Source: Eubacteriales bacterium
Lineage (GTDB): Bacteria; Bacillota; Clostridia; Oscillospirales; CAG-382
Length of the DNA stretch: 59,978 nt
Assembly: GCA_045636665.1 (NCBI GenBank)
Contig: JAZTXY010000014.1
Location: 1 to 59,978 of the forward strand
Reading direction: 5' to 3'
Positions 3,508 to 59,028 of the stretch are shown here, one piece after another. The translations under genes and the position numbers were made by a program. Below the pieces are notes generated by a model. The model ran no database searches, was not told the DNA's origin, and saw only the letters and a program-made list of their open reading frames with translations. Numbering within the stretch: position 1 is the first letter of the stretch; every line of letters starts with the position of its first letter.

Positions 3508-4896
3508 TTAGTTTTTTACTTTTCCGTTCAGGGCATAAGCGCCTGCGGTTTCGATCACTACGTCGATAAACTGTCCCTCGGGGATGAATTTATCGTAAGT
3601 AACGATCTTGTTTTGAGTGCTTCTTCCGCAAGGGATTCCGTTTTTGTTCAATCCGTCGGAAAGCACGCGCAGAGTACGCCCGATAAATTTATCGTTAAGC
3701 GCCTGTGCAATATCGTTTTCCATATCCGAAAGTGCCTTAAAGCGAGCGTTGGAAACGTCCTTGGGTATCTGTCCCTCCATATTCGCCGCAACCGTACCGG
3801 GACGGGGAGAATAGATGAAGGTGTAAATCATATCGAACCCAACTTTCTTTACAAGCGACATCGTTTCGGCAAAATCCTCATCGGTTTCGGTCGGGAAGCC
3901 GCAGATTATATCGGTCGTAAGCGATATTTCGGGGTTCTTTTCTTTGATTTTAAGCGCCTTTTCCAAATACTGCTCGCGAGTGTATTTTCGGTTCATCAGC
4001 TTAAGCACTCTGCTCGAGCCCGATTGAACGGGAAGGTGAAAATGCTTTGCGACGTTTTTGTTGTTGGCGATAACCTCGATAAGCTTGTCCGAAGCATCCT
4101 TCGGGTGGCTCGTCATAAAGCGCATACGGTATTCACCGTCAAACGACGCGCATTCCTCCAAAAGCTCGGCAAAATCGCATCCGCCGTTATAGGAATTAAC
4201 GTTTTGTCCCAAAAGGGTTATATCCTTATAGCCCTGCTCGACAAGCGACTTTACCTCGGCAACGACGTCTTCCCTTCTGCGCGAGCGCTCGCGTCCTCTT
4301 GCATAGGGCACGACGCAATAGGTACAGAAATTGTTGCATCCGTACATTACGGGAACCCACGCCTTATAAGAATTTTCACGGCGCACGGGCATACCCTCGC
4401 TTATTATACCGAATTCATCGTGCTTCGATTCGGTAATGAACGAAAAACGCTTTTTCGCGGTAAGCGCGTTTTTGATTATTTCGGGTACTCTGTGATGCAT
4501 ATCGGTACCGAAAACAAAATCAACGTAAGGATAGCTTTTATAAATCTGCTCGCGGCGGTGGGATTGCTGCGCCATACATCCGCAAAGCCCGATTTTTATG
4601 CTTCTGTCGCGTTCTTTTCTGCCCTTGAACTGTCCTGCCTCGGAAAGCGCACGGATTTCGGCATGCTCACGGATAGCGCAGGTGTTGATGATTATCATAT
4701 CGGCTTCATCGGGATTGTCGGTCATTTCGTAACCGCACAGCTCCAATGCGCCCGCTATACGCTCGCTGTCGTTTTCGTTTTGCTGACAGCCAAAGGTTAT
4801 AACACACGCCTTTTTTCCCGAAACCTCGGGAACCAACGAACGCGCGATTTCATATTGGCGGTCGATTTCGGTTTGCGGAATAAAAATATTTTCCAT
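3508..4896 (-). CDS. miaB: tRNA-2-methylthio-N6-dimethylallyladenosine synthase MiaB (radical SAM methylthiotransferase)
   Basis: MTTase N-domain ITFGCQQNENDSE and radical-SAM CNNFCTYC, with a TRAM-like C-terminus. ATG at 4896 overlaps the upstream stop (TAATG). Confidence 0.93.
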   Translation of the reverse strand: MENIFIPQTEIDRQYEIARSLVPEVSGKKACVITFGCQQNENDSERIAGALELCGYEMTDNPDEADMIIINTCAIREHAEIRALSEAGQFKGRKERDRSIKIGLCGCMAQQSHRREQIYKSYPYVDFVFGTDMHHRVPEIIKNALTAKKRFSFITESKHDEFGIISEGMPVRRENSYKAWVPVMYGCNNFCTYCVVPYARGRERSRRREDVVAEVKSLVEQGYKDITLLGQNVNSYNGGCDFAELLEECASFDGEYRMRFMTSHPKDASDKLIEVIANNKNVAKHFHLPVQSGSSRVLKLMNRKYTREQYLEKALKIKEKNPEISLTTDIICGFPTETDEDFAETMSLVKKVGFDMIYTFIYSPRPGTVAANMEGQIPKDVSNARFKALSDMENDIAQALNDKFIGRTLRVLSDGLNKNGIPCGRSTQNKIVTYDKFIPEGQFIDVVIETAGAYALNGKVKN

Positions 4897-30340: not shown

Positions 30341-33300
30341 ATGATTAAAAGAGCGCTTGCTACGGTTTTGATAATTCTTACCGTACTGCCTGCCGTTGTT
30401 TTGGCAGGGAGCGTTCTTTTTGCGCCCTATAACGGCCTTGAAGCGTTTGACGACAGCTGGGAAAACTCGATAAACGCCGCTTTGGGCAACGGAGCCGAAA
30501 CAGGCAAAGCCGTTTCACCTCTCCCCGACGGCGAAAGATATATCGTAAAATTCAAGGACAACGTTTCGTTACTGTCGATTGAAAATGCGCTTGAAGCAAC
30601 CGAATACCGTCAGCTTGCCGAAAGCGAGCAAAGACTGTTTGTGATAAGCGACAGCGAAAGCAAATTCATTAAAGAAAACAGCGATATTATCGAATACCAC
30701 GAAACAGACCTTATGCGTGAGGCTTTGGCGCTTACCAACGACGCGGTAACACTGCCCACCTTTGAAACGACCGGAATTTACGAGGCTTGGGATACCGTAA
30801 AGGCGAGAAACGATATTATCGTCGCGGTATTGGATACCGGTATCGACCGCACTCACGAGGATTTGGTCGATGCAAGCATTCTCCCCGGATATGACGCGGT
30901 AACGAAAACGGCAGGTGTTTACGACGACGCCGTCGGTCACGGCACGGGTGTTATCGGTCTTATCGCCGCAACGGCAGATAACGGAATCGGTATCGCAGGC
31001 GCGGCTCACGGCGTTACGATTTTGCCGATAAAGGTTTCGGCAAGCAGTACGACCATTTATTCATCGGATTTGGTTTCGGCAATACGGTTTGCCGCAAATT
31101 CGGGCGCAAAGGTAATTAATATGTCCGTCGGCGGACTTTCCTATTCCTATGCCGAGCAGGAGGCGGTAAATTATGCCGTTTCAAAGGGATGTATTCTCGT
31201 TTCCGCTTCGGGCAACGGCGGTTTGCTTCCCTATGCCGACAAAAAAAGCTATCCCGCATCCTACGAGGGCGTTATTTCGGTCGCATCCTGCGATGCCTTC
31301 GGTGAAAGAAGCTCTTTTTCGCAGTATAACGATATGGTCGACATCGCCGCGCCCGGCGAAGCGGTGATGATGCCGATTGTCGAAAACGGCGTTTCGGCTT
31401 ACCGCACCGATTCGGGCACGAGCTTTTCCTGCGCGATAGTAAGCGCAATTGCGGCGCTTGCGGTTTCCGCCTGCGACGAGGATGTGCGCTTTGACAGCGA
31501 TGAATTTTTGTCGCTTATAATGAATACCTGCAACAAAATACGCACCGACGAGCTCGGCTTTGGCATTATCAACGCAAAGCCCATTATCGAATCGGCAAAT
31601 TTGCCGATAATCACCGGCGCGATTGACGGAAACGTTTATAACGAAAGCATTAAGGTCGGCTTTAACCGCGGAAGCGCATTGCTTGACGGCGAAGAATTTG
31701 AAGACGGCGATGCCATTATCGCAAACGGCGAGCACGAGCTTAAAATAACCGACGGCGATTACGAAAAAATTATTCGCTTCCGTTTGGAATACGAGCCGTT
31801 TTCCTATGAATTCAAGGAATTTTCGGACTATGCCTATTTTGTGTTCAACCGCGGAACCGCGTTGCTCGACGGCTTCCCTTATTCGTCGGGTGAAAAGATA
31901 ACCGCATCGGGCAGACACGAATTCGTTATTACCGACGGCACCGAAACGTTCACAAAAATTATTGATATTCAATACGCTCTGCCCTCGGTATACGGAGTTG
32001 AAGACGGCGGAATTTATAATAACCCAATAGAAATTTGCGTTGTCGGCGACGGCAAAGCAATGCTTGACGGCAAGCGCTTTTACAACAAGACCTGCGTTGC
32101 CGAAAGCGGTGTACATACACTTTCGGTCGAAAGCGGAACCGGCACTGTCAAAAAGGAATATACCTTTGAAATCAATTTCCCGTTTGCGGAATTTACCCAA
32201 ACCGATTATGCCGAATCGACTGCGGCAATCGACGAAGAAAACGGTTATGCCTGCATTTACGGCGATTCGCTTGTGGGTGTGAGGATTTACGGCTTAAACG
32301 ACCTTTCGCAATATCTGCATTTTCTGCCGATAGGCCGTGTTTATGCCCACAAATTCACCGAAACCGAGCTGGTTTTGGCAGGTGACGAGGGCATTACCGT
32401 AATTTCACGCGCGAATGCATTGAATCCCGAATCAGCGGTTATCAACAACGTTTATTTCGAAGGCATCGAGCTTTATACGTTTGCCGACGAAACGGTTTAC
32501 TGCTTCGGCGATAAAAACATTTATCTTTTGGACTCTGCTTTTTCCGAGCTTACACATATTGCAAACGTCGGATTTTCTTGCACAAACGCAATTTATTCCG
32601 ACGGATTGATTTGTCTTACGTCCGACCAAAACGACCGTACAGTTTATGTTTTCAACACCGAAAACAATTCGCTTTCAAGTTTTTCGATTGATTTTTCGCT
32701 TGAGCTTCAGCCGATTTATTTCGAGCACGGATACCTTGCAATCGGCAACCGTTTGATCAACGTGCTTCGCAAAGCCGTCGTGCTTGAATTTTGCTCCTAC
32801 AAGGCGATTGATATTGAAGACGGGCTTCTGTTTTGCGAAAATGCAATAATCGATATTGCTTCGGGCAGAGAATTGGGAAGATTCCCCTTCCCCGTTTCGG
32901 ATATTGTTTTGGGGGCTGACGGCATTTATCTTTTCGGTGTCGAGCCGATAGCGGCGAAAATTTCAAGTCTTGCCGAGGACGTTTTTGCCTACGGTGCGGC
33001 AAAGCCGACCGACCTTGCGTTTTCACAGCCCGAAAATTCAAACGAATTCAGACAAACCCTGTTTATCGACGGAAGCTTCAATGCGCTTTCGACAGTGGCG
33101 GGTCAAACCGACGTTTTCGCGATATTCAAGGATAAATACGCAATATATTCCCTTGCGCTTGACGGACTTGCCGAAAAAGCTCCCGTAAAATTGCGCTTTG
33201 AACCCGAAAAGCTCTTCCTTTCGGGCGGTTATCTTGCCGTTTCCTTTAAAAACGCACCTTTCGTTTATGTCGCTCATGAAACCGACGTTTCATCGGGCAA

Positions 33301-35773
33301 TTATATCGAGCTTCCCTCGAAATGCGATTCGGCTTGTACCGTAAACGGAACGCTTTACGCAGTTTCGGGAGGCAGATTGCTTTACTGCAACGCCGACGGA
33401 AGCGAAAAAGCCGCGCTGTCGGTACGCGCACGCGCCGTTGCGACCGACGGAATGCGCGTCTACGTTTTAAACGGCACCACGCTTTCGGCGTATGACGAAA
33501 ATTTTGTTCGATTGACGGAAATAAGAACCAACGACGGCGAGCTTTTCGTTGCAAACGGCGTTATTGTCGGAAACGTGCTTTACGACAACACGCTCTTTGC
33601 CGAATACGCAACGGTTGCCAATCCGATCGATTACGTTTATAATAACGTTTATTTCTCGGGCAACGGCATTTACGATATTCTCACCTCACGCTTTATCGGA
33701 AAATTCGGTGTAGAATCGACCGATGCGGCTTGCGCGGCTCAAAACGGAAGCATTATTGCCTTTGGCGGCAGTATTGTAACGGTTTCAAAATATGCCGATT
33801 CGCACGATATTTCGGTTCCTCCCGTTATCGAAGGCATTGCCCACGGCGAAATTTACAACGGCAGCGCAACCGTTACCTTTACGGAGGGTGTCGGTCATAT
33901 CGACGGCAAGGTTATTGAATCGGGAACGGTTATAACCCAAGCAGGCGCACATAACTTTGTGCTTACGCTTCCCTTCGGTCAAAGCGTTTCTTTCGGATTT
34001 ACAATCGAAGCGAATATCGAAAGCATTGAATTTCTCGTTCCCAACCGCACTATGTCGGTCGGTGAAACAATAACCCTGCGCGTGCGCTTCCTTCCCGACG
34101 GCGCAAGCTCGGTTCCCGTTACCTACTCCTGCGATTCCGACGGATTGAGCTTTGGAGATATGGGCGAGGTCACTGCGCTTCGCACGGGTGTTTACACCGT
34201 AACGGCTACCGTTGTTACCGATTACAAAACCTTCAAGGCGGAAAACACCATAACGGTGCGCGACGACCTTATAACCTTTAAGCCCGACAGCGGAATGATC
34301 GTCGACCGCGACAATCTTATCCTTTACGGCATCAAGCCCGGAAGCACGGCAAAGGACGTTTTGGCACTTCTTTCGGTAAAAAAAGAAGCGCGCTTCCTCA
34401 ACACAAGCAAGCGCGAGGTCAAGGGCGTCGTTGCAACGGGACATACGTTGGCGCTTTACGGCGACGACGGTGAAATTACCGACCGCCTTACTGTTGTAAT
34501 CCGCGGCGATACCGACGGCGACGGATTTATTACCGCATACGATATGCTCACGCTTGAGCGTATGCTTAAAAACTATCAATACGATTCCGTTTATCTGCAA
34601 GCAGGCGATATAAACGGCAACGGCGTGCTTGCCGATAACGATTTCCGCGAGTTGCGAAACGTTGTTCTCCGCCGTACCGAGGATGTGCTCGGCACACCCG
34701 ACAAAAACCTTTTCGGCTCGATCGACGTGCAAACGCTTTCGCACATCGCAAGCGGTGAAATTATCGACGTGGTGCTTTGTCTTAACGGCTCAAAGCACGC
34801 GCGAAGCATCGACGGCGTTATTGAATACAGCGACGGCCTTGAATTTATCGAAAGCGTCACAACGGGTTGGGACGTGAATTGCCGTGATATCGGCGATAAC
34901 AAGCTTGGACTTTTTGCCTACGACCACAAAGGCGAAGAATGCAACAAAGCCTTCTTCGTGATAATTTCACTTCGATTCCGAGTAACCGCAAAAGCGGGCG
35001 AAACGCTTAAGCTTTCCGCAAAAACGCTTACGGCATCGTTTGAAAGCGGCGCAAAGCAAATCACGTTCAACGACAACGAGTTTAAGGTGAGCGAAAGCAA
35101 GGTCGGCGATTTCAGAATCGACGTTCTCAACGCAAAATCCTTTGAATTTGACCCCGAGGTTTACGAATACGACGGAATAACAGTTCCCTACAACGCGGCT
35201 GTTGCCGATATTGCGATAACGCGCGATGAAAACAGCGTTATTTCGGTTTCGGGCTCGTCGATACCCAACGACGGCAAGGCAACGATAACCGTAAGCCGTG
35301 TTACCGAAAGCGGAGAAACCAAGGTTTATACCCTTAACGTACGCCGCGAAAGCGAACCGCGCTTCGATTCGAACTGTATGCTCGATTCGCTTGAAATAGA
35401 GGGCTTTAAGCTTATCCCGACGTTCGACCCCAAGGTTACCGAATACAGCATTTCGGTGCCCTTCGGAACCGAAAAGATAAGCATTCACTGTAAGGCGCAA
35501 AGCCCGACCGCGCAGGTGATTATCGGCGATACAACGCTTTATTCCGAAACAAACACGATAACAGTGACCGTTATCTCGCCCGACGGCGAATCGCTCGTCT
35601 ATACGATAAACGCAACGGTATTGCCAAAGGTCGAGGAATCGTCCGAGCCGCTTATCGAACCGCAGGCTCAGCAAAACGATATACCCTGGGGCATTATTGC
35701 CCTATCGGCAATGGCAGGTATTTCGGTTTTGGTTGCAATTTGGCTTATCGCAAGACGCAAAAAGGTTAAATAA
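30341..35773 (+). CDS. 1810-aa cell-surface S8 (subtilisin-like) serine peptidase with repeat modules, Big_2, dockerin-like, cohesin-like and cadherin-like domains and a C-terminal TM anchor
   Basis: Signal peptide at aa 1-23. Catalytic triad D165 (LDTGID, 30833), H200 (HGTGV, 30938) and S361 (SGTSFS, 31421). Dockerin-like loops GDTDGDGFITAYD / GDINGNGVLADND at 34505-34672. Cadherin-like DSLEIEGFKLIPTFDPKVTEYSI. TM helix WGIIALSAMAGISVLVAIWLIA followed by RRKK. Confidence 0.9.
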   Translation: MIKRALATVLIILTVLPAVVLAGSVLFAPYNGLEAFDDSWENSINAALGNGAETGKAVSPLPDGERYIVKFKDNVSLLSIENALEATEYRQLAESEQRLFVISDSESKFIKENSDIIEYHETDLMREALALTNDAVTLPTFETTGIYEAWDTVKARNDIIVAVLDTGIDRTHEDLVDASILPGYDAVTKTAGVYDDAVGHGTGVIGLIAATADNGIGIAGAAHGVTILPIKVSASSTTIYSSDLVSAIRFAANSGAKVINMSVGGLSYSYAEQEAVNYAVSKGCILVSASGNGGLLPYADKKSYPASYEGVISVASCDAFGERSSFSQYNDMVDIAAPGEAVMMPIVENGVSAYRTDSGTSFSCAIVSAIAALAVSACDEDVRFDSDEFLSLIMNTCNKIRTDELGFGIINAKPIIESANLPIITGAIDGNVYNESIKVGFNRGSALLDGEEFEDGDAIIANGEHELKITDGDYEKIIRFRLEYEPFSYEFKEFSDYAYFVFNRGTALLDGFPYSSGEKITASGRHEFVITDGTETFTKIIDIQYALPSVYGVEDGGIYNNPIEICVVGDGKAMLDGKRFYNKTCVAESGVHTLSVESGTGTVKKEYTFEINFPFAEFTQTDYAESTAAIDEENGYACIYGDSLVGVRIYGLNDLSQYLHFLPIGRVYAHKFTETELVLAGDEGITVISRANALNPESAVINNVYFEGIELYTFADETVYCFGDKNIYLLDSAFSELTHIANVGFSCTNAIYSDGLICLTSDQNDRTVYVFNTENNSLSSFSIDFSLELQPIYFEHGYLAIGNRLINVLRKAVVLEFCSYKAIDIEDGLLFCENAIIDIASGRELGRFPFPVSDIVLGADGIYLFGVEPIAAKISSLAEDVFAYGAAKPTDLAFSQPENSNEFRQTLFIDGSFNALSTVAGQTDVFAIFKDKYAIYSLALDGLAEKAPVKLRFEPEKLFLSGGYLAVSFKNAPFVYVAHETDVSSGNYIELPSKCDSACTVNGTLYAVSGGRLLYCNADGSEKAALSVRARAVATDGMRVYVLNGTTLSAYDENFVRLTEIRTNDGELFVANGVIVGNVLYDNTLFAEYATVANPIDYVYNNVYFSGNGIYDILTSRFIGKFGVESTDAACAAQNGSIIAFGGSIVTVSKYADSHDISVPPVIEGIAHGEIYNGSATVTFTEGVGHIDGKVIESGTVITQAGAHNFVLTLPFGQSVSFGFTIEANIESIEFLVPNRTMSVGETITLRVRFLPDGASSVPVTYSCDSDGLSFGDMGEVTALRTGVYTVTATVVTDYKTFKAENTITVRDDLITFKPDSGMIVDRDNLILYGIKPGSTAKDVLALLSVKKEARFLNTSKREVKGVVATGHTLALYGDDGEITDRLTVVIRGDTDGDGFITAYDMLTLERMLKNYQYDSVYLQAGDINGNGVLADNDFRELRNVVLRRTEDVLGTPDKNLFGSIDVQTLSHIASGEIIDVVLCLNGSKHARSIDGVIEYSDGLEFIESVTTGWDVNCRDIGDNKLGLFAYDHKGEECNKAFFVIISLRFRVTAKAGETLKLSAKTLTASFESGAKQITFNDNEFKVSESKVGDFRIDVLNAKSFEFDPEVYEYDGITVPYNAAVADIAITRDENSVISVSGSSIPNDGKATITVSRVTESGETKVYTLNVRRESEPRFDSNCMLDSLEIEGFKLIPTFDPKVTEYSISVPFGTEKISIHCKAQSPTAQVIIGDTTLYSETNTITVTVISPDGESLVYTINATVLPKVEESSEPLIEPQAQQNDIPWGIIALSAMAGISVLVAIWLIARRKKVK

Positions 35774-50777: not shown

Positions 50778-50780
50778 AAC

Positions 50781-50812
50781 AAAAACCACCCAATCGGGTG
50801 GTTTTTTGTTTG
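50781..50812 (+). terminator. Rho-independent terminator after tRNA-Ser
   Basis: AAAAACCACCC-aatc-GGGTGGTTTTT followed by TGTTT. Confidence 0.7.
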
Positions 50813-58023: not shown

Positions 58024-58098
58024 GGCCTGTTAGTCAAGTGGTCAAGACGTCGCCCTCTCACGGCGAAGGCAGGGGTTCGACTCCCCTACGGGTCACCA
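58024..58098 (+). tRNA. tRNA-Glu (anticodon CTC), CCA encoded
   Basis: Hand-folded. Acceptor GGCCTGT/ACGGGTC (two G-T pairs), D-stem GTC/GAC, anticodon stem TCGCC/GGCGA with loop CTCTCAC, T-arm AGGGG-TTCGACT-CCCCT, then A-CCA. 75 nt. Confidence 0.85.
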
Positions 58099-58102
58099 GA
58101 AA

Positions 58103-58142
58103 AGAAACACCTTTTGTCCGATAGACAAAAGGTGTTTCTTTT
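58103..58142 (+). terminator. Strong terminator hairpin after tRNA-Glu
   Basis: 16-bp perfect stem AGAAACACCTTTTGTC-cgata-GACAAAAGGTGTTTCT followed by TTT. Confidence 0.7.
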
Positions 58143-58147
58143 CAACT

Positions 58148-58314
58148 AAGTGTGCCTTGCGGCACGATAAGCACACCTTCGGTGCGTGAAGCGATGCTTT
58201 GCATCGTGAAGTGCCTGCGGGCGTGAGTGGCACACTTGACTTCACTTTGTGCGCAAGCACAATACTTCACAGCGGCATTGCCGCTGCTTCACTTGGGCGA
58301 AGCCCAAACTTCAC
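58148..58314 (+). repeat. Array of eight distinct short hairpins separated by invariant GTGAAG (x3, one variant) and CTTCAC (x4) linkers
   Basis: Hairpins at 58152-65, 58171-87, 58192-206, 58212-23, 58226-36, 58247-62, 58271-85 and 58293-307. Linkers at 58186, 58206, 58223 and 58240, 58265, 58287, 58309. No ORF. Confidence 0.8.
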
Positions 58315-58320
58315 AAAAGA

Positions 58321-58349
58321 TTGAAATGCTCCGCAGTTTATGGTATAAT
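58321..58349 (+). promoter_or_regulatory. Extended -10 promoter TTGAAA-17-TGgTATAAT
   Basis: Hexamers at 58321-58326 and 58344-58349, 22 nt upstream of the four-helix-bundle gene start. Confidence 0.5.
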
Positions 58350-58371
58350 TTAATAAATCGGAGGTGATGTT

Positions 58372-58725
58372 ATGTCTGAAAGCAAGTTAAGAACACAATC
58401 GATGGATTTTGCAGTATCCGTCATCAATCTCGTTAAACAGTTGAAAGAAAAGCGAGAATCGATTATTTCCAACCAAATCGGTAGAAGCGGCACATCCATT
58501 GGTGCTAATATTTGTGAGGCGCAATACGCTCATGGAAAAGCTGATTTCATCGCCAAACTCCAAATTGCTCTTAAAGAAGCAAATGAAACAGGATATTGGT
58601 TAGAACTGCTATTCAAAACAAAATACATATCCGAGGAAGAATATAAAATTCTTGATTCTGCTTGTACAAGTATCCGTGTTATGCTTATCTCTTCTATCAA
58701 CACCGCAAAGGAGAACGCAAAATGA
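58372..58725 (+). CDS. Four-helix-bundle protein (23S rRNA intervening-sequence protein / Avd-like family)
   Basis: 117 aa. ..FAVSVINLVKQL....I.NQI.RSGTSIGANI.EAQ......DF..KL.IALKEA.ET.YWLELL matches the family pattern. GGAGGTG RBS upstream. Confidence 0.85.
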   Translation: MSESKLRTQSMDFAVSVINLVKQLKEKRESIISNQIGRSGTSIGANICEAQYAHGKADFIAKLQIALKEANETGYWLELLFKTKYISEEEYKILDSACTSIRVMLISSINTAKENAK

Positions 58726-58848
58726 TTAGGCTATGTTCCGGATATGGAAGGTGCCTCAAAATTTTCTCTTGAACATACGTTACGTAGCTGTGATGAGGAT
58801 CACAGTCCTTATGCAGGGTTTGTTTTTTTGTTGTCGAAAAGACTTTCC

Positions 58849-58955
58849 TTGACAGAAAGAGATTCTTTGTGTATACTGCCTTTAGAATCCAAATCGGTAC
58901 TGCGTAACGGCAAGAGCAGCCTATTAACGTTCAGCCGTTTTTGGATTCTTTTTTT
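58849..58955 (+). ncRNA. Candidate small RNA: promoter TTGACA-17-TATACT followed by a 10-bp closed stem and T6
   Basis: AGAATCCAAA (58884-93) pairs with TTTGGATTCT (58940-49), then TTTTTT. No RBS or start codon inside. Transcription not demonstrated. Confidence 0.3.
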
Positions 58956-58996
58956 CATACCCAAGCGATAATCAAAAGCATCCGCTTACGAAAGTA

Positions 58997-59028
58997 TAAA
59001 AAAACAGACGGTTGCCCGTCTGTTTTGT
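58997..59028. terminator. Bidirectional terminator
   Basis: AAAAAAA-ACAGACGG-ttgc-CCGTCTGT-TTTG, 10 nt from the stop of the minus-strand gene at 59038. Confidence 0.7.

Follow-up and report, generated by a model that had tools for sequence, protein, structure and literature searches.

A complete, divergent Gut-1 element at the 5′ boundary of a small exchangeable cassette behind a tRNA-Glu gene in a Clostridia genome

The Gut-1 motif (RF01706) was described in 2010 from human-gut metagenomes, with the comment that it occurred in no sequenced organism, and it was judged likely to be an RNA but not a cis-regulatory one (Weinberg et al., 2010; PMC2864571). Rfam types it as an sRNA (small RNA). 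The PF05635 protein family includes Avd, the accessory protein of diversity-generating retroelements (DGRs), which has been described as a homologue of PF05635 proteins, as well as the products of ORFs inside 23S rRNA intervening sequences (PMC10053308). Both families are represented at the locus described here, a ladder of short hairpins joined by repeated words that occupies positions 58144–58316 of a 59 978 nt stretch of an Eubacteriales genome (contig JAZTXY010000014.1; hereafter the window, to which all coordinates refer) and lies between a tRNA-Glu gene and a gene for a four-helix-bundle protein of the PF05635 family. The ladder is a complete, divergent member of the Gut-1 family and is not new in kind; together with the terminator hairpin in front of it, it is the 5′ boundary module of a small exchangeable cassette. 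Neither the motif nor its link to the gene was the subject of any functional study retrieved by literature searches on Gut-1, PF05635, TIGR02436 and stand-alone Avd.

Gut-1 membership and anatomy of the full element

The preliminary description of this locus, made from the sequence alone, could place the ladder in no known RNA family and named an Rfam match as the observation that would tell against it. Such a match is found. In a permissive Rfam scan Gut-1 aligns at 58143–58217 on the + strand (42.1 bits, E-value 1.4 × 10−6) and at 58234–58316 on the − strand (27.9 bits); both halves fall below the gathering score of 50 bits, and at the curated cut-offs Rfam finds nothing besides tRNAs in the whole window. 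The alignment to model positions 1–77 takes in hairpins 1–3 with the words GATAAG, GTGAAG and GTGAAG, giving the three hairpins and GUGAA-type word by which Gut-1 is recognized. Homologous ladders elsewhere (loci are designated by three-figure L numbers) do exceed 50 bits, namely those of L052 (77.5), L111 (70.1), L120 (62.6) and L141 (52.0 and 51.0); the two L141 copies are of the GTGAAG type, and the other three are of the GTGAAAT type at the edges of viral contigs. A leave-one-out profile of 28 foreign ladders, the L141 copies included, matches 58144–58315 with an E-value of 3.4 × 10−36 and has no second match anywhere in the window. Judged by this homology, membership of Gut-1 is secure although the window copy is itself sub-threshold.

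The alignment of the Gut-1 authors includes flanks, and these reveal what the 77 nt model omits. In the seed loci three hairpins joined by GUGAUAU or GUGAAAU are followed by a small central hairpin, UGCCUGCGGCA, by a segment complementary to the start of the element, and then by three or four hairpins joined by AUAUCAC or AUUUCAC; several seed loci begin directly after a terminator, and in one case the element follows a tRNA. The dyad ladder is thus the normal full form of Gut-1, of which the window carries the GTGAAG/CTTCAC version. The two have in common tandem short hairpins, a GUGAA-type word, covarying stems and gut Clostridia-type sequences, and the seed loci with their flanks share both the terminator–ladder–dyad layout and the same central hairpin. 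The window copy differs in its word (GTGAAG rather than GUGAAAU), in its degenerate first linker and in its score of 42.1 bits, whereas the Rfam model and description differ from it in covering only the three 5′ hairpins, half of the dyad element. The 3′ array of complementary words, the long-range helix P1, the abutting terminator, the links to tRNAs and PF05635 and the place at the head of a variable cassette, with a PF05635 gene as very frequent cargo, seem to be absent from the published description of Gut-1.

In the window the left anchor is the tRNA-Glu gene (anticodon CUC; 58024–58098, + strand; found by ARAGORN and matched at 65.5 bits by the Rfam tRNA model), which is also present in L241 and L243 and from which the homology of close relatives runs on through the terminator. 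This terminator hairpin, hp0, is a perfect 20 bp hairpin with an A-run and a T-run (arms 58099–58118 and 58124–58143; inverted repeat I1) and by inspection is of the bidirectional intrinsic terminator type; a terminator scan of 58099–58314 called no terminator-like site, hp0 included. The ladder abuts hp0 directly and opens with AACTAAGT (58144–58151, + strand, as are all features up to the cargo gene), which represents L0, a first linker of degenerate sequence, coincides with the left edge of the variable cassette and is kept at the 5′ edge of nearly all GTGAAG-type ladders. There follow hairpin 1 (GTGCC-ttgc-GGCAC, 58152–58165), the degenerate linker L1 (GATAAG, 58166–58171, the same variant as in L167, L176 and L193), hairpin 2 (CACACC-ttc-GGTGCG, 58172–58186, with an A58173·C58185 mismatch), linker L2 (GTGAAG, 58186–58191), hairpin 3 (CGATGC-ttt-GCATCG, 58192–58206), linker L3 (GTGAAG, 58206–58211; like L2 an exact word match) and the central hairpin (GCC-tgcg-GGC, 58213–58222), which is the counterpart of the conserved GCCTGCGGC-type centre of the Gut-1 seed loci. 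Behind a linker-like word, GTGAGT (58223–58228), stands X′ (GGCACACTTG, 58229–58238; inverted repeat I2), the 3′ strand of P1, whose 5′ strand X (TAAGTGTGCC, 58147–58156) overlaps the 5′ arm of hairpin 1. The 3′ half (58240–58314) consists of four CTTCAC words, at 58240, 58265, 58287 and 58309, around the hairpins TTGTGC-gcaa-GCACAA (58247–58262), AGCGGC-att-GCCGCT (58271–58285) and TTGGGC-gaa-GCCCAA (58293–58307). A strong promoter-like site (TTGAAA-17-TATAAT preceded by TG, 11 of 12 matches, 58321–58349) and the cargo gene (58372–58725) complete the arrangement. The ladder sequence and the positions of the GTGAAG, GTGAGT and CTTCAC words had been given correctly in the preliminary description. 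Only hp0 carries a U-run, the ladder hairpins running into the linker word and not into T-runs, which rules out an array of intrinsic terminators.

GTGAAG and CTTCAC occur 32 times in the whole window where 19.1 matches are expected, and six of the 32 lie within 129 nt, for which the rate in the rest of the window predicts about 0.06 (Poisson estimate, P about 4 × 10−11). Two further arrays of word and hairpin, at 30908–30976 and 34987–35055, are chance occurrences inside an ORF encoding 1810 aa (30341–35773); a relative's locus near the same neighbourhood has a 2607-aa adhesin-like gene (DUF7601, FctA). A second tRNA terminator in the window (50779–50812) differs from hp0, and no ladder is found there. 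Dispersed copies, raised beforehand as a sign of a REP- or MITE-like repeat (repetitive extragenic palindrome or miniature inverted-repeat transposable element), are not seen in the window, which holds a single ladder array in 60 kb; they are found to some extent in other genomes, where several loci have two ladder copies within 8 kb and one 2010 metagenome has at least five loci.

The Rfam type, the 2010 verdict against cis-regulation and the matches of the model to opposite strands in the two halves would suit a free-standing small RNA, either a single one with its own promoter or two convergent Gut-1 RNAs. We consider this hardly probable at all, since the ladder starts 0–3 nt past the T-run of the terminator, too close for a promoter to fit in between, its right side lacks a − strand promoter and in many loci has a coding gene that starts 15–22 nt past the ladder, and neither its centre nor its 3′ end has a terminator.

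When species-representative genomes were scanned for the pattern, at least 30 loci with true GTGAAG/CTTCAC ladders were found, all in metagenome-assembled genomes of gut or rumen Clostridia (Faecousia, Acutalibacteraceae, Oscillospiraceae, Christensenella, Scatosoma and 'Clostridia bacterium'), and 29 canonical copies were extracted for comparison. In a viral scan (GTGAAAT three times) five of 120 loci were true ladders, all of them beside RNA genes at contig ends, and the rest were mostly tandem-repeat junk; a BLAST search of phage and plasmid collections with the ladder gave zero matches. All canonical copies share the order hp0, AACTAAGT, hairpin 1, word, hairpin 2, word, hairpin 3, word, central hairpin and X′, followed by a 3′ array of the complementary word (word′-hairpin-word′-hairpin-word′-hairpin-word′). 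Of 77 full ladders nearly all have a hairpin directly in front of them, in 29 with a TTTGTC-loop-GACAAA core, and since this core of hp0 is shared by many ladders that follow different tRNAs, hp0 travels with the ladder.

The preliminary description had proposed selection on structure, and this is borne out by compensated stem changes between fixed linkers in an alignment of 11 close relatives. In the hairpins and P1 91–93 % of cells are paired and 19 pairs have changed on both sides, which none of 500 shuffles reaches; slid-alignment controls are 30–43 % paired, and RNAalifold recovers seven hairpins independently. Hairpin 1 is 98 % paired with two pairs changed on both sides, as are all four pairs in hairpin 2 and four in hairpin 3, and the three hairpins of the 3′ half are 94–97 % paired with eight such changes. 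Seven of the eight hairpins originally proposed are therefore conserved, including the two that had been called weak (hairpin 2 with its one mismatch, and the central hairpin of 3 bp), which are positionally conserved as well. The eighth, AGTG-gca-CACT (58226–58236), is not conserved, and the segment is instead X′. The conserved total is seven hairpins plus the terminator hairpin.

The hairpins within one array all differ, yet each is positionally conserved across genera with compensatory change. This bears on the possibility that the ladder is a selfish or structural array of extragenic palindromes, like REP elements and bacterial interspersed mosaic elements (BIMEs), which spreads by duplication, has no specific partner and has at most generic effects such as terminator backup, stabilization of upstream RNA 3′ ends or absorption of supercoils. 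Ladders are always intergenic and directly after terminators, they expand, contract and occur as half arrays, and their stems are perfect Watson–Crick palindromes on both strands; with REP elements and BIMEs they share the extragenic position beside terminators, palindromic units in both orientations, short conserved linkers and changing array lengths. REP units, however, share one sequence and are present in tens to hundreds of copies per genome, whereas the ladder keeps only a word of 6–7 nt constant and occurs once in 60 kb. The positional conservation just described also speaks against such an array, as do the maintenance of P1 over 70–80 nt, the strong and oriented association with one gene family, and the restriction of the U-run to hp0, by which the ladder hairpins are not terminators. 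As to unit structure, REP, BIME and MITE were each rejected, there being no shared unit sequence and no outer inverted repeat or target duplication, only an inner duplication (hairpin 1 and X′). We regard a generic palindrome array as quite unlikely.

Two competing folds and the question of strand

The complementarity between AAGTGTGCC (58148–58156) and GGCACACTT (58229–58237), mentioned only in passing in the preliminary description, is 100 % and turns out to belong to the best-supported long-range helix of the element, one that competes with the ladder fold. This helix, P1, has 10 bp in the window (58147–58156 with 58229–58238, including a T58147·G58238 wobble pair) and 10–13 bp in nearly all of the 29 loci, and it is 95.4 % paired in the covariation alignment. 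It covaries (TGTGCC/GGCACA, TTTGCC/GGCAAA, TTCGCC/GGCGAA, TGTTCC/GGAACA, TGCGCC/GGCGCG), and over the 29 loci it comprises 270 Watson–Crick, nine G·T and one A·C pairs. Counted over 27 distinct helices, G·T pairs outnumber A·C pairs by 10 to 2, and this excess favours pairing in a single-stranded molecule of the + strand; P1 is the only part of the element that carries a strand mark of this kind. Hairpin 1 and P1 compete for the GTGCC strand, and the 3′ arm of hairpin 1 is identical to the start of X′.

The alternative fold is formed by the words. Nested pairing of the linkers into stacked four-way junctions, as first proposed, is the predicted minimum-energy structure in the window and in 28 of the 29 loci, and forcing P1 is generally predicted to give a less stable fold. 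Both strands of the segment fold better than any of 200 shuffles (z −3.85 for + and −3.22 for −). Six word pairs have been seen, and in every pair the two words are reverse complements: GTGAAG/CTTCAC (window), ATGAAG/CTTCAT (L288, L326 and others), GTGAAAT/ATTTCAC (L052, L111, L120), GUGAUAU/AUAUCAC (the 2010 seeds), TGATAT/ATATCA (L243) and ATATCATC/GATGATAT (L241). The words of the two halves thus stay complementary even where the word differs between loci. Because the words are invariant within the GTGAAG family, base-level covariation cannot test their pairing, and its support is this word-level covariation between families; the register of word pairing is ambiguous from covariation of the flanking bases, since these are dictated by the neighbouring stems. 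Two other roles for the words were tried and rejected. A three-frame stop barrier made by their TGA is not supported, many spacings being multiples of 3 and all frames being covered by the 5′ words in two of the 29 loci, and mimicry of a Glu codon or anticodon does not fit neighbours that include Glu, Leu, Cys, Arg, Gly, Trp and Ser tRNAs.

Across the 29 loci the words are spaced at 15–23 nt in the 5′ half and 18–29 nt in the 3′ half with no helical phasing, and the suggestion of evenly phased DNA iterons in the preliminary description is weakened accordingly. A duplex DNA operator or iteron array, in which a protein, perhaps the four-helix-bundle protein, binds GTGAAG in both orientations and controls the cargo promoter, would account for the inverted word arrays about a dyad and for a −35 box that begins 6–10 nt past the last linker in the window and many relatives. 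Besides the variable 15–29 nt spacing, where constant helical phasing would be expected, it has to contend with spacers that are selected as palindromes, which a duplex-binding array does not need, and with 17 of 55 loci in which the start codon lies no more than 22 nt after the last linker and no promoter intervenes between ladder and start. An operator is, in our view, very improbable.

The orientation of the element is fixed, with the GTGAAG-type array first, the complementary array second and the gene third in all 55 ladders detected ahead of relatives of the four-helix-bundle gene, and the orientation relative to the downstream gene is also fixed in all 29 canonical loci. In L296 the tRNA promoter is the only promoter-like site in 800 nt, and the ladder must there be part of a tRNA–ladder–gene transcript. 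The loops, pyrimidine-rich in the 5′ half and purine-rich in the 3′ half, are of types (UNCG- or GNRA-like) that are favourable on either strand and do not discriminate RNA from DNA.

An exchangeable cassette and its Avd-like cargo

Close relatives of the locus were found through the neighbouring MarR gene (87 % identity); exact-sequence look-ups with the four-helix-bundle and MarR proteins of the window returned no record. BLAST homology with L243 stops at 58145, in the first bases of the ladder, and restarts at 59016, so that the ladder is the first feature of an 870 bp variable cassette (58146–59015) between two terminator hairpins. The next gene after the cassette encodes a 239-aa membrane protein on the opposite strand, and a bidirectional terminator hairpin (AAAACAGACGG-ttgc-CCGTCTGTTTT, 59001–59026) separates the cassette from this convergent gene. 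The homology of relatives restarts inside that hairpin, at 59016 in L243 and 58999 in L241, and both cassette borders are thus terminator hairpins. Within the cassette, downstream of the four-helix-bundle gene, we note a strong promoter-like site (TTGACA-17-TATACT, 58849–58877) followed by a stretch of about 75 nt (to 58957) that forms one long hairpin (AGAAUCCAAA...UUUGGAUUCU, −24.4 kcal mol−1) with a U-run at its end; 58849–58957 is a possible small RNA.

The contents of the cassette turn over. At the same tRNA-Glu, L243 and L244 have a TGATAT/ATATCA ladder and a 162-aa P-loop protein but no four-helix-bundle gene, and L241 has a ATATCATC/GATGATAT ladder, a different PF05635 gene and two more small genes. 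Near-identical modules of ladder and gene stand behind tRNAs for Arg (L164, L167), Gly (L226), Trp (L193), Cys (L215, L159, L176) and Leu (L144). Several 8 kb loci have two ladders, L203 being ordered as ladder, four-helix-bundle gene, ladder, gene, and the arrays themselves show unit duplications (L261, L290) and internal deletions (L255, L162). In L290, upstream of 2501, there are nine CTTCAC units with near-identical hairpins, an array expansion, and in L261, also upstream of 2501, the whole terminator–ladder–promoter unit is tandemly duplicated with the junction between the −35 and −10 boxes. The copy in L025 consists of the left half only, with the breakpoint exactly at the dyad centre. 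The viral-contig edges L025 (9817–9861) and L052 (− strand, 3692–3736 in reverse-complement coordinates) share the end of an RNA gene, the terminator and the left GTGAAAT half, and L025 then continues from the dyad centre, in place of the right half, with the 3′ part of a sugar-kinase-like coding sequence; either recombination at the centre or chimeric assembly could have produced this junction.

Not all ladders follow a recognized tRNA. In L025/L052, L111, L249 and L253 the approximately 60 nt before hp0 contain a tRNA-like 3′ end (GGTTCGAGTCCAAC...AGGGGGAGCCA), for which there is no ARAGORN call and no Rfam match at E-values up to 0.01, and which may be an unannotated stable RNA gene. In L141, L162, L202, L204, L218 and L229 the ladder is preceded by a gene of 459–521 aa ending in ...FPRTGHVESVVCLT(H/R)..N*, whose last codons form both arms of hp0 and whose stop codon is the TAA of AACTAAGT. 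We take this gene, from its C-terminal FPRTxHVE motif only, to be of the 23S rRNA uracil-methyltransferase type. In L141 a copy of the hairpin with a coding-like arm also precedes the second ladder, far from the methyltransferase-like gene.

This turnover is what would be expected if the ladder acted at the DNA level, as a site of recombination or mobility that serves a mobile cassette as its cis-acting end or attachment site, with hairpins that form in single-stranded DNA and a recombinase or transposase that reads the word in both orientations; such a site would resemble integron attC, the subterminal repeats of transposon ends or the systems of REP elements and their RAYT transposases. In its favour are the position of the ladder as exactly the first feature of the variable region, the differing combinations of word and cargo at one tRNA-Glu site in close relatives, the homologous modules behind six kinds of tRNA (Glu, Arg, Gly, Trp, Cys, Leu), the two-ladder loci such as L203 and the five or more differently flanked loci in one 2010 metagenome, the half copy of L025, the duplications (L261, L290), deletions (L255, L162) and half arrays, the strand-neutral perfect palindromes with units inverted about the centre, and the identity of the 3′ arm of hairpin 1 with the start of X′, as a target duplication would look. 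No recombinase or transposase was found, however, in the neighbourhoods read, in which a 299-aa protein with helix–turn–helix (HTH) and T5orf172 (GIY-YIG-like) domains, encoded at 1061–1960 of L141 right after the ladder-linked four-helix-bundle gene, is the only nuclease-like product seen beside a ladder. No outer terminal inverted repeat with a target duplication can be defined, the orientation to flanking genes is strictly fixed, P1 has a strand-specific G·U bias, the phage and plasmid collections gave zero matches, and ordinary homologous recombination in the conserved flanks could also explain cassette replacement. We treat a recombination site as the main rival to an RNA-level function and as possible but somewhat unlikely; the two are not mutually exclusive.

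Integron attC sites have R′′ and R′ cores (RYYYAAC and GTTRRRY) and a single folded stem. Like the ladder they are imperfect palindromes at cassette boundaries whose sequence varies while the fold and short complementary boxes are kept. The ladder, in contrast, lacks the GTTRRRY/RYYYAAC core, has many side hairpins instead of a single stem with extrahelical bases, and precedes its gene where attC follows. An attC site was accordingly rejected on the words GTGAAG/CTTCAC and the multi-hairpin fold, and the annotated flanks of about 10 loci contain no integron integrase.

The cargo of the window is a 117-aa Avd-like four-helix-bundle protein (PF05635, TIGR02436) whose closest solved structure is PDB 2RLD (E-value 2 × 10−32, five chains). 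Among pattern-selected loci totalling 896 kb, chosen without regard to proteins, there are 12 PF05635-like ORFs, nine of them directly behind a ladder, and one ladder itself directly follows an ORF of this kind. Conversely, of 74 close protein relatives for which the upstream sequence is long enough, 55 are preceded by a ladder in the same orientation. Other cargo includes a P-loop kinase-like protein, small unknown proteins and membrane proteins, and models of defence systems (PADLOC) gave no match for the cargo proteins. Avd is the only characterized relative of the cargo protein, and there is no reverse transcriptase in the gene tables of L241 and L243–L248 or in the ORF maps and Pfam scans of L141, L202 and L203, so that these neighbourhoods do not represent DGRs; nor does the window, where the 239-aa membrane protein gene comes next in a sequence that extends to 59978. 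With type III toxin–antitoxin systems (ToxI/toxN) the locus shares a repeat array and a terminator before a small protein gene, and its RNA could bind an oligomeric protein, whereas ToxI consists of identical direct repeats before the terminator and the ladder has inverted arrays with different spacers. A ToxIN-like system was rejected, the cargo being PF05635 and not ToxN/AbiQ and having no PADLOC match.

Possible action of the element and its significance

The explanation that we favour for the whole, with a probability of roughly one half, is that the Gut-1 element acts on the + strand as an RNA leader or boundary module of the cassette. The family membership, the anatomy, the covariation, the genomic context and the turnover of cassettes are firm; what we infer beyond them is that the element acts as RNA and switches between its folds, and that the four-helix-bundle protein may bind to it. 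Transcription escaping hp0 would run through the ladder, and in many relatives the tRNA promoter is the only possible source of such transcription. The local hairpins and P1 could form first, as the RNA emerges, and after synthesis of the 3′ array the words of the two halves would pair to give the stacked junctions, the thermodynamically favoured end state in prediction. The compact structure would separate the cargo mRNA from the upstream stable-RNA transcript and might set its stability or translation, and the repeated words may also serve as binding sites for the oligomeric four-helix-bundle protein.

Several observations weigh against this explanation. Base-level covariation is found in P1 alone among the long-range pairings, and P1 and the ladder fold are mutually exclusive. 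Arrays with the 3′ word only exist (L158, L139, L151 and others; L158 has a simple X/X′ hairpin ahead of its 3′ array and four-helix-bundle gene), so that pairing between words cannot be the whole story. The local hairpins, with 101 perfect stems, six with G·T and six with A·C, show no G·U enrichment, a neutrality that is unusual for a structured RNA and that fits DNA palindromes equally well, or very short RNA stems intolerant of weak pairs. The two halves are inverted in style and match Gut-1 on opposite strands; the loop style shows the halves to be inverted copies of one unit of word and hairpin, which is also the reason for the matches on opposite strands. The window copy has a strong-looking terminator in front of it and the cargo gene's own promoter behind it, and may therefore be transcribed only by read-through of hp0, giving little + strand RNA. 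Finally, in the unbiased sample about two-thirds of the ladders have no four-helix-bundle gene behind them.

A bolder proposal is that the ladder and its Avd-like gene form an unrecognized selfish cassette that rides stable-RNA transcription units, behind tRNAs in one form and inside 23S rRNA helices in the other. The parallel with the PF05635 genes of rRNA intervening sequences is suggestive: in both, so far as can be judged, a PF05635 gene lies by or in a strongly structured element within a stable-RNA unit, although the unit in the window follows a tRNA gene (elsewhere a methyltransferase gene) and its terminator and does not interrupt an rRNA helix. Such a cassette would insert at or beside hairpins, and its expression would depend on transcripts that start at the tRNA or rRNA promoter and read through into it. 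Each half of the ladder RNA has the word four to five times, and this RNA might wrap the pentameric protein as a ribonucleoprotein by which the cassette's processing or spread would be controlled. On this view one half-array would have been inserted into the loop of the X/X′ hairpin of another to give the full dyad ladder, with L158 as the uninterrupted form. Taken as a whole we think this proposal unlikely.

Gut-1 has been in Rfam since 2010 as a gut-only motif without organism, context or function. The locus and its relatives supply carriers (Oscillospiraceae, Acutalibacteraceae, Christensenellales-type and other gut or rumen Clostridia), a full anatomy that is about double the size of the Rfam model and includes a closing helix that covaries and arrays of mutually complementary words, a constant genomic location directly behind terminators, most of them belonging to tRNA operons, and a partner gene that recurs. 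That partner belongs to a large and almost unstudied stand-alone branch of Avd/PF05635, whose only other known address is in 23S rRNA intervening sequences, and the locus marks a small hot spot for cassettes. If the ladder were only a generic palindrome array, the value of these findings would be limited to a better annotation of RF01706. The searchable literature appears to contain neither the extended anatomy nor the address nor the partner gene; these make the function of an old orphan motif testable, and for both orphans, motif and protein, they provide the hypothesis that Gut-1 may be the RNA leader, or part of a ribonucleoprotein, of a cassette that hitchhikes on stable-RNA genes.

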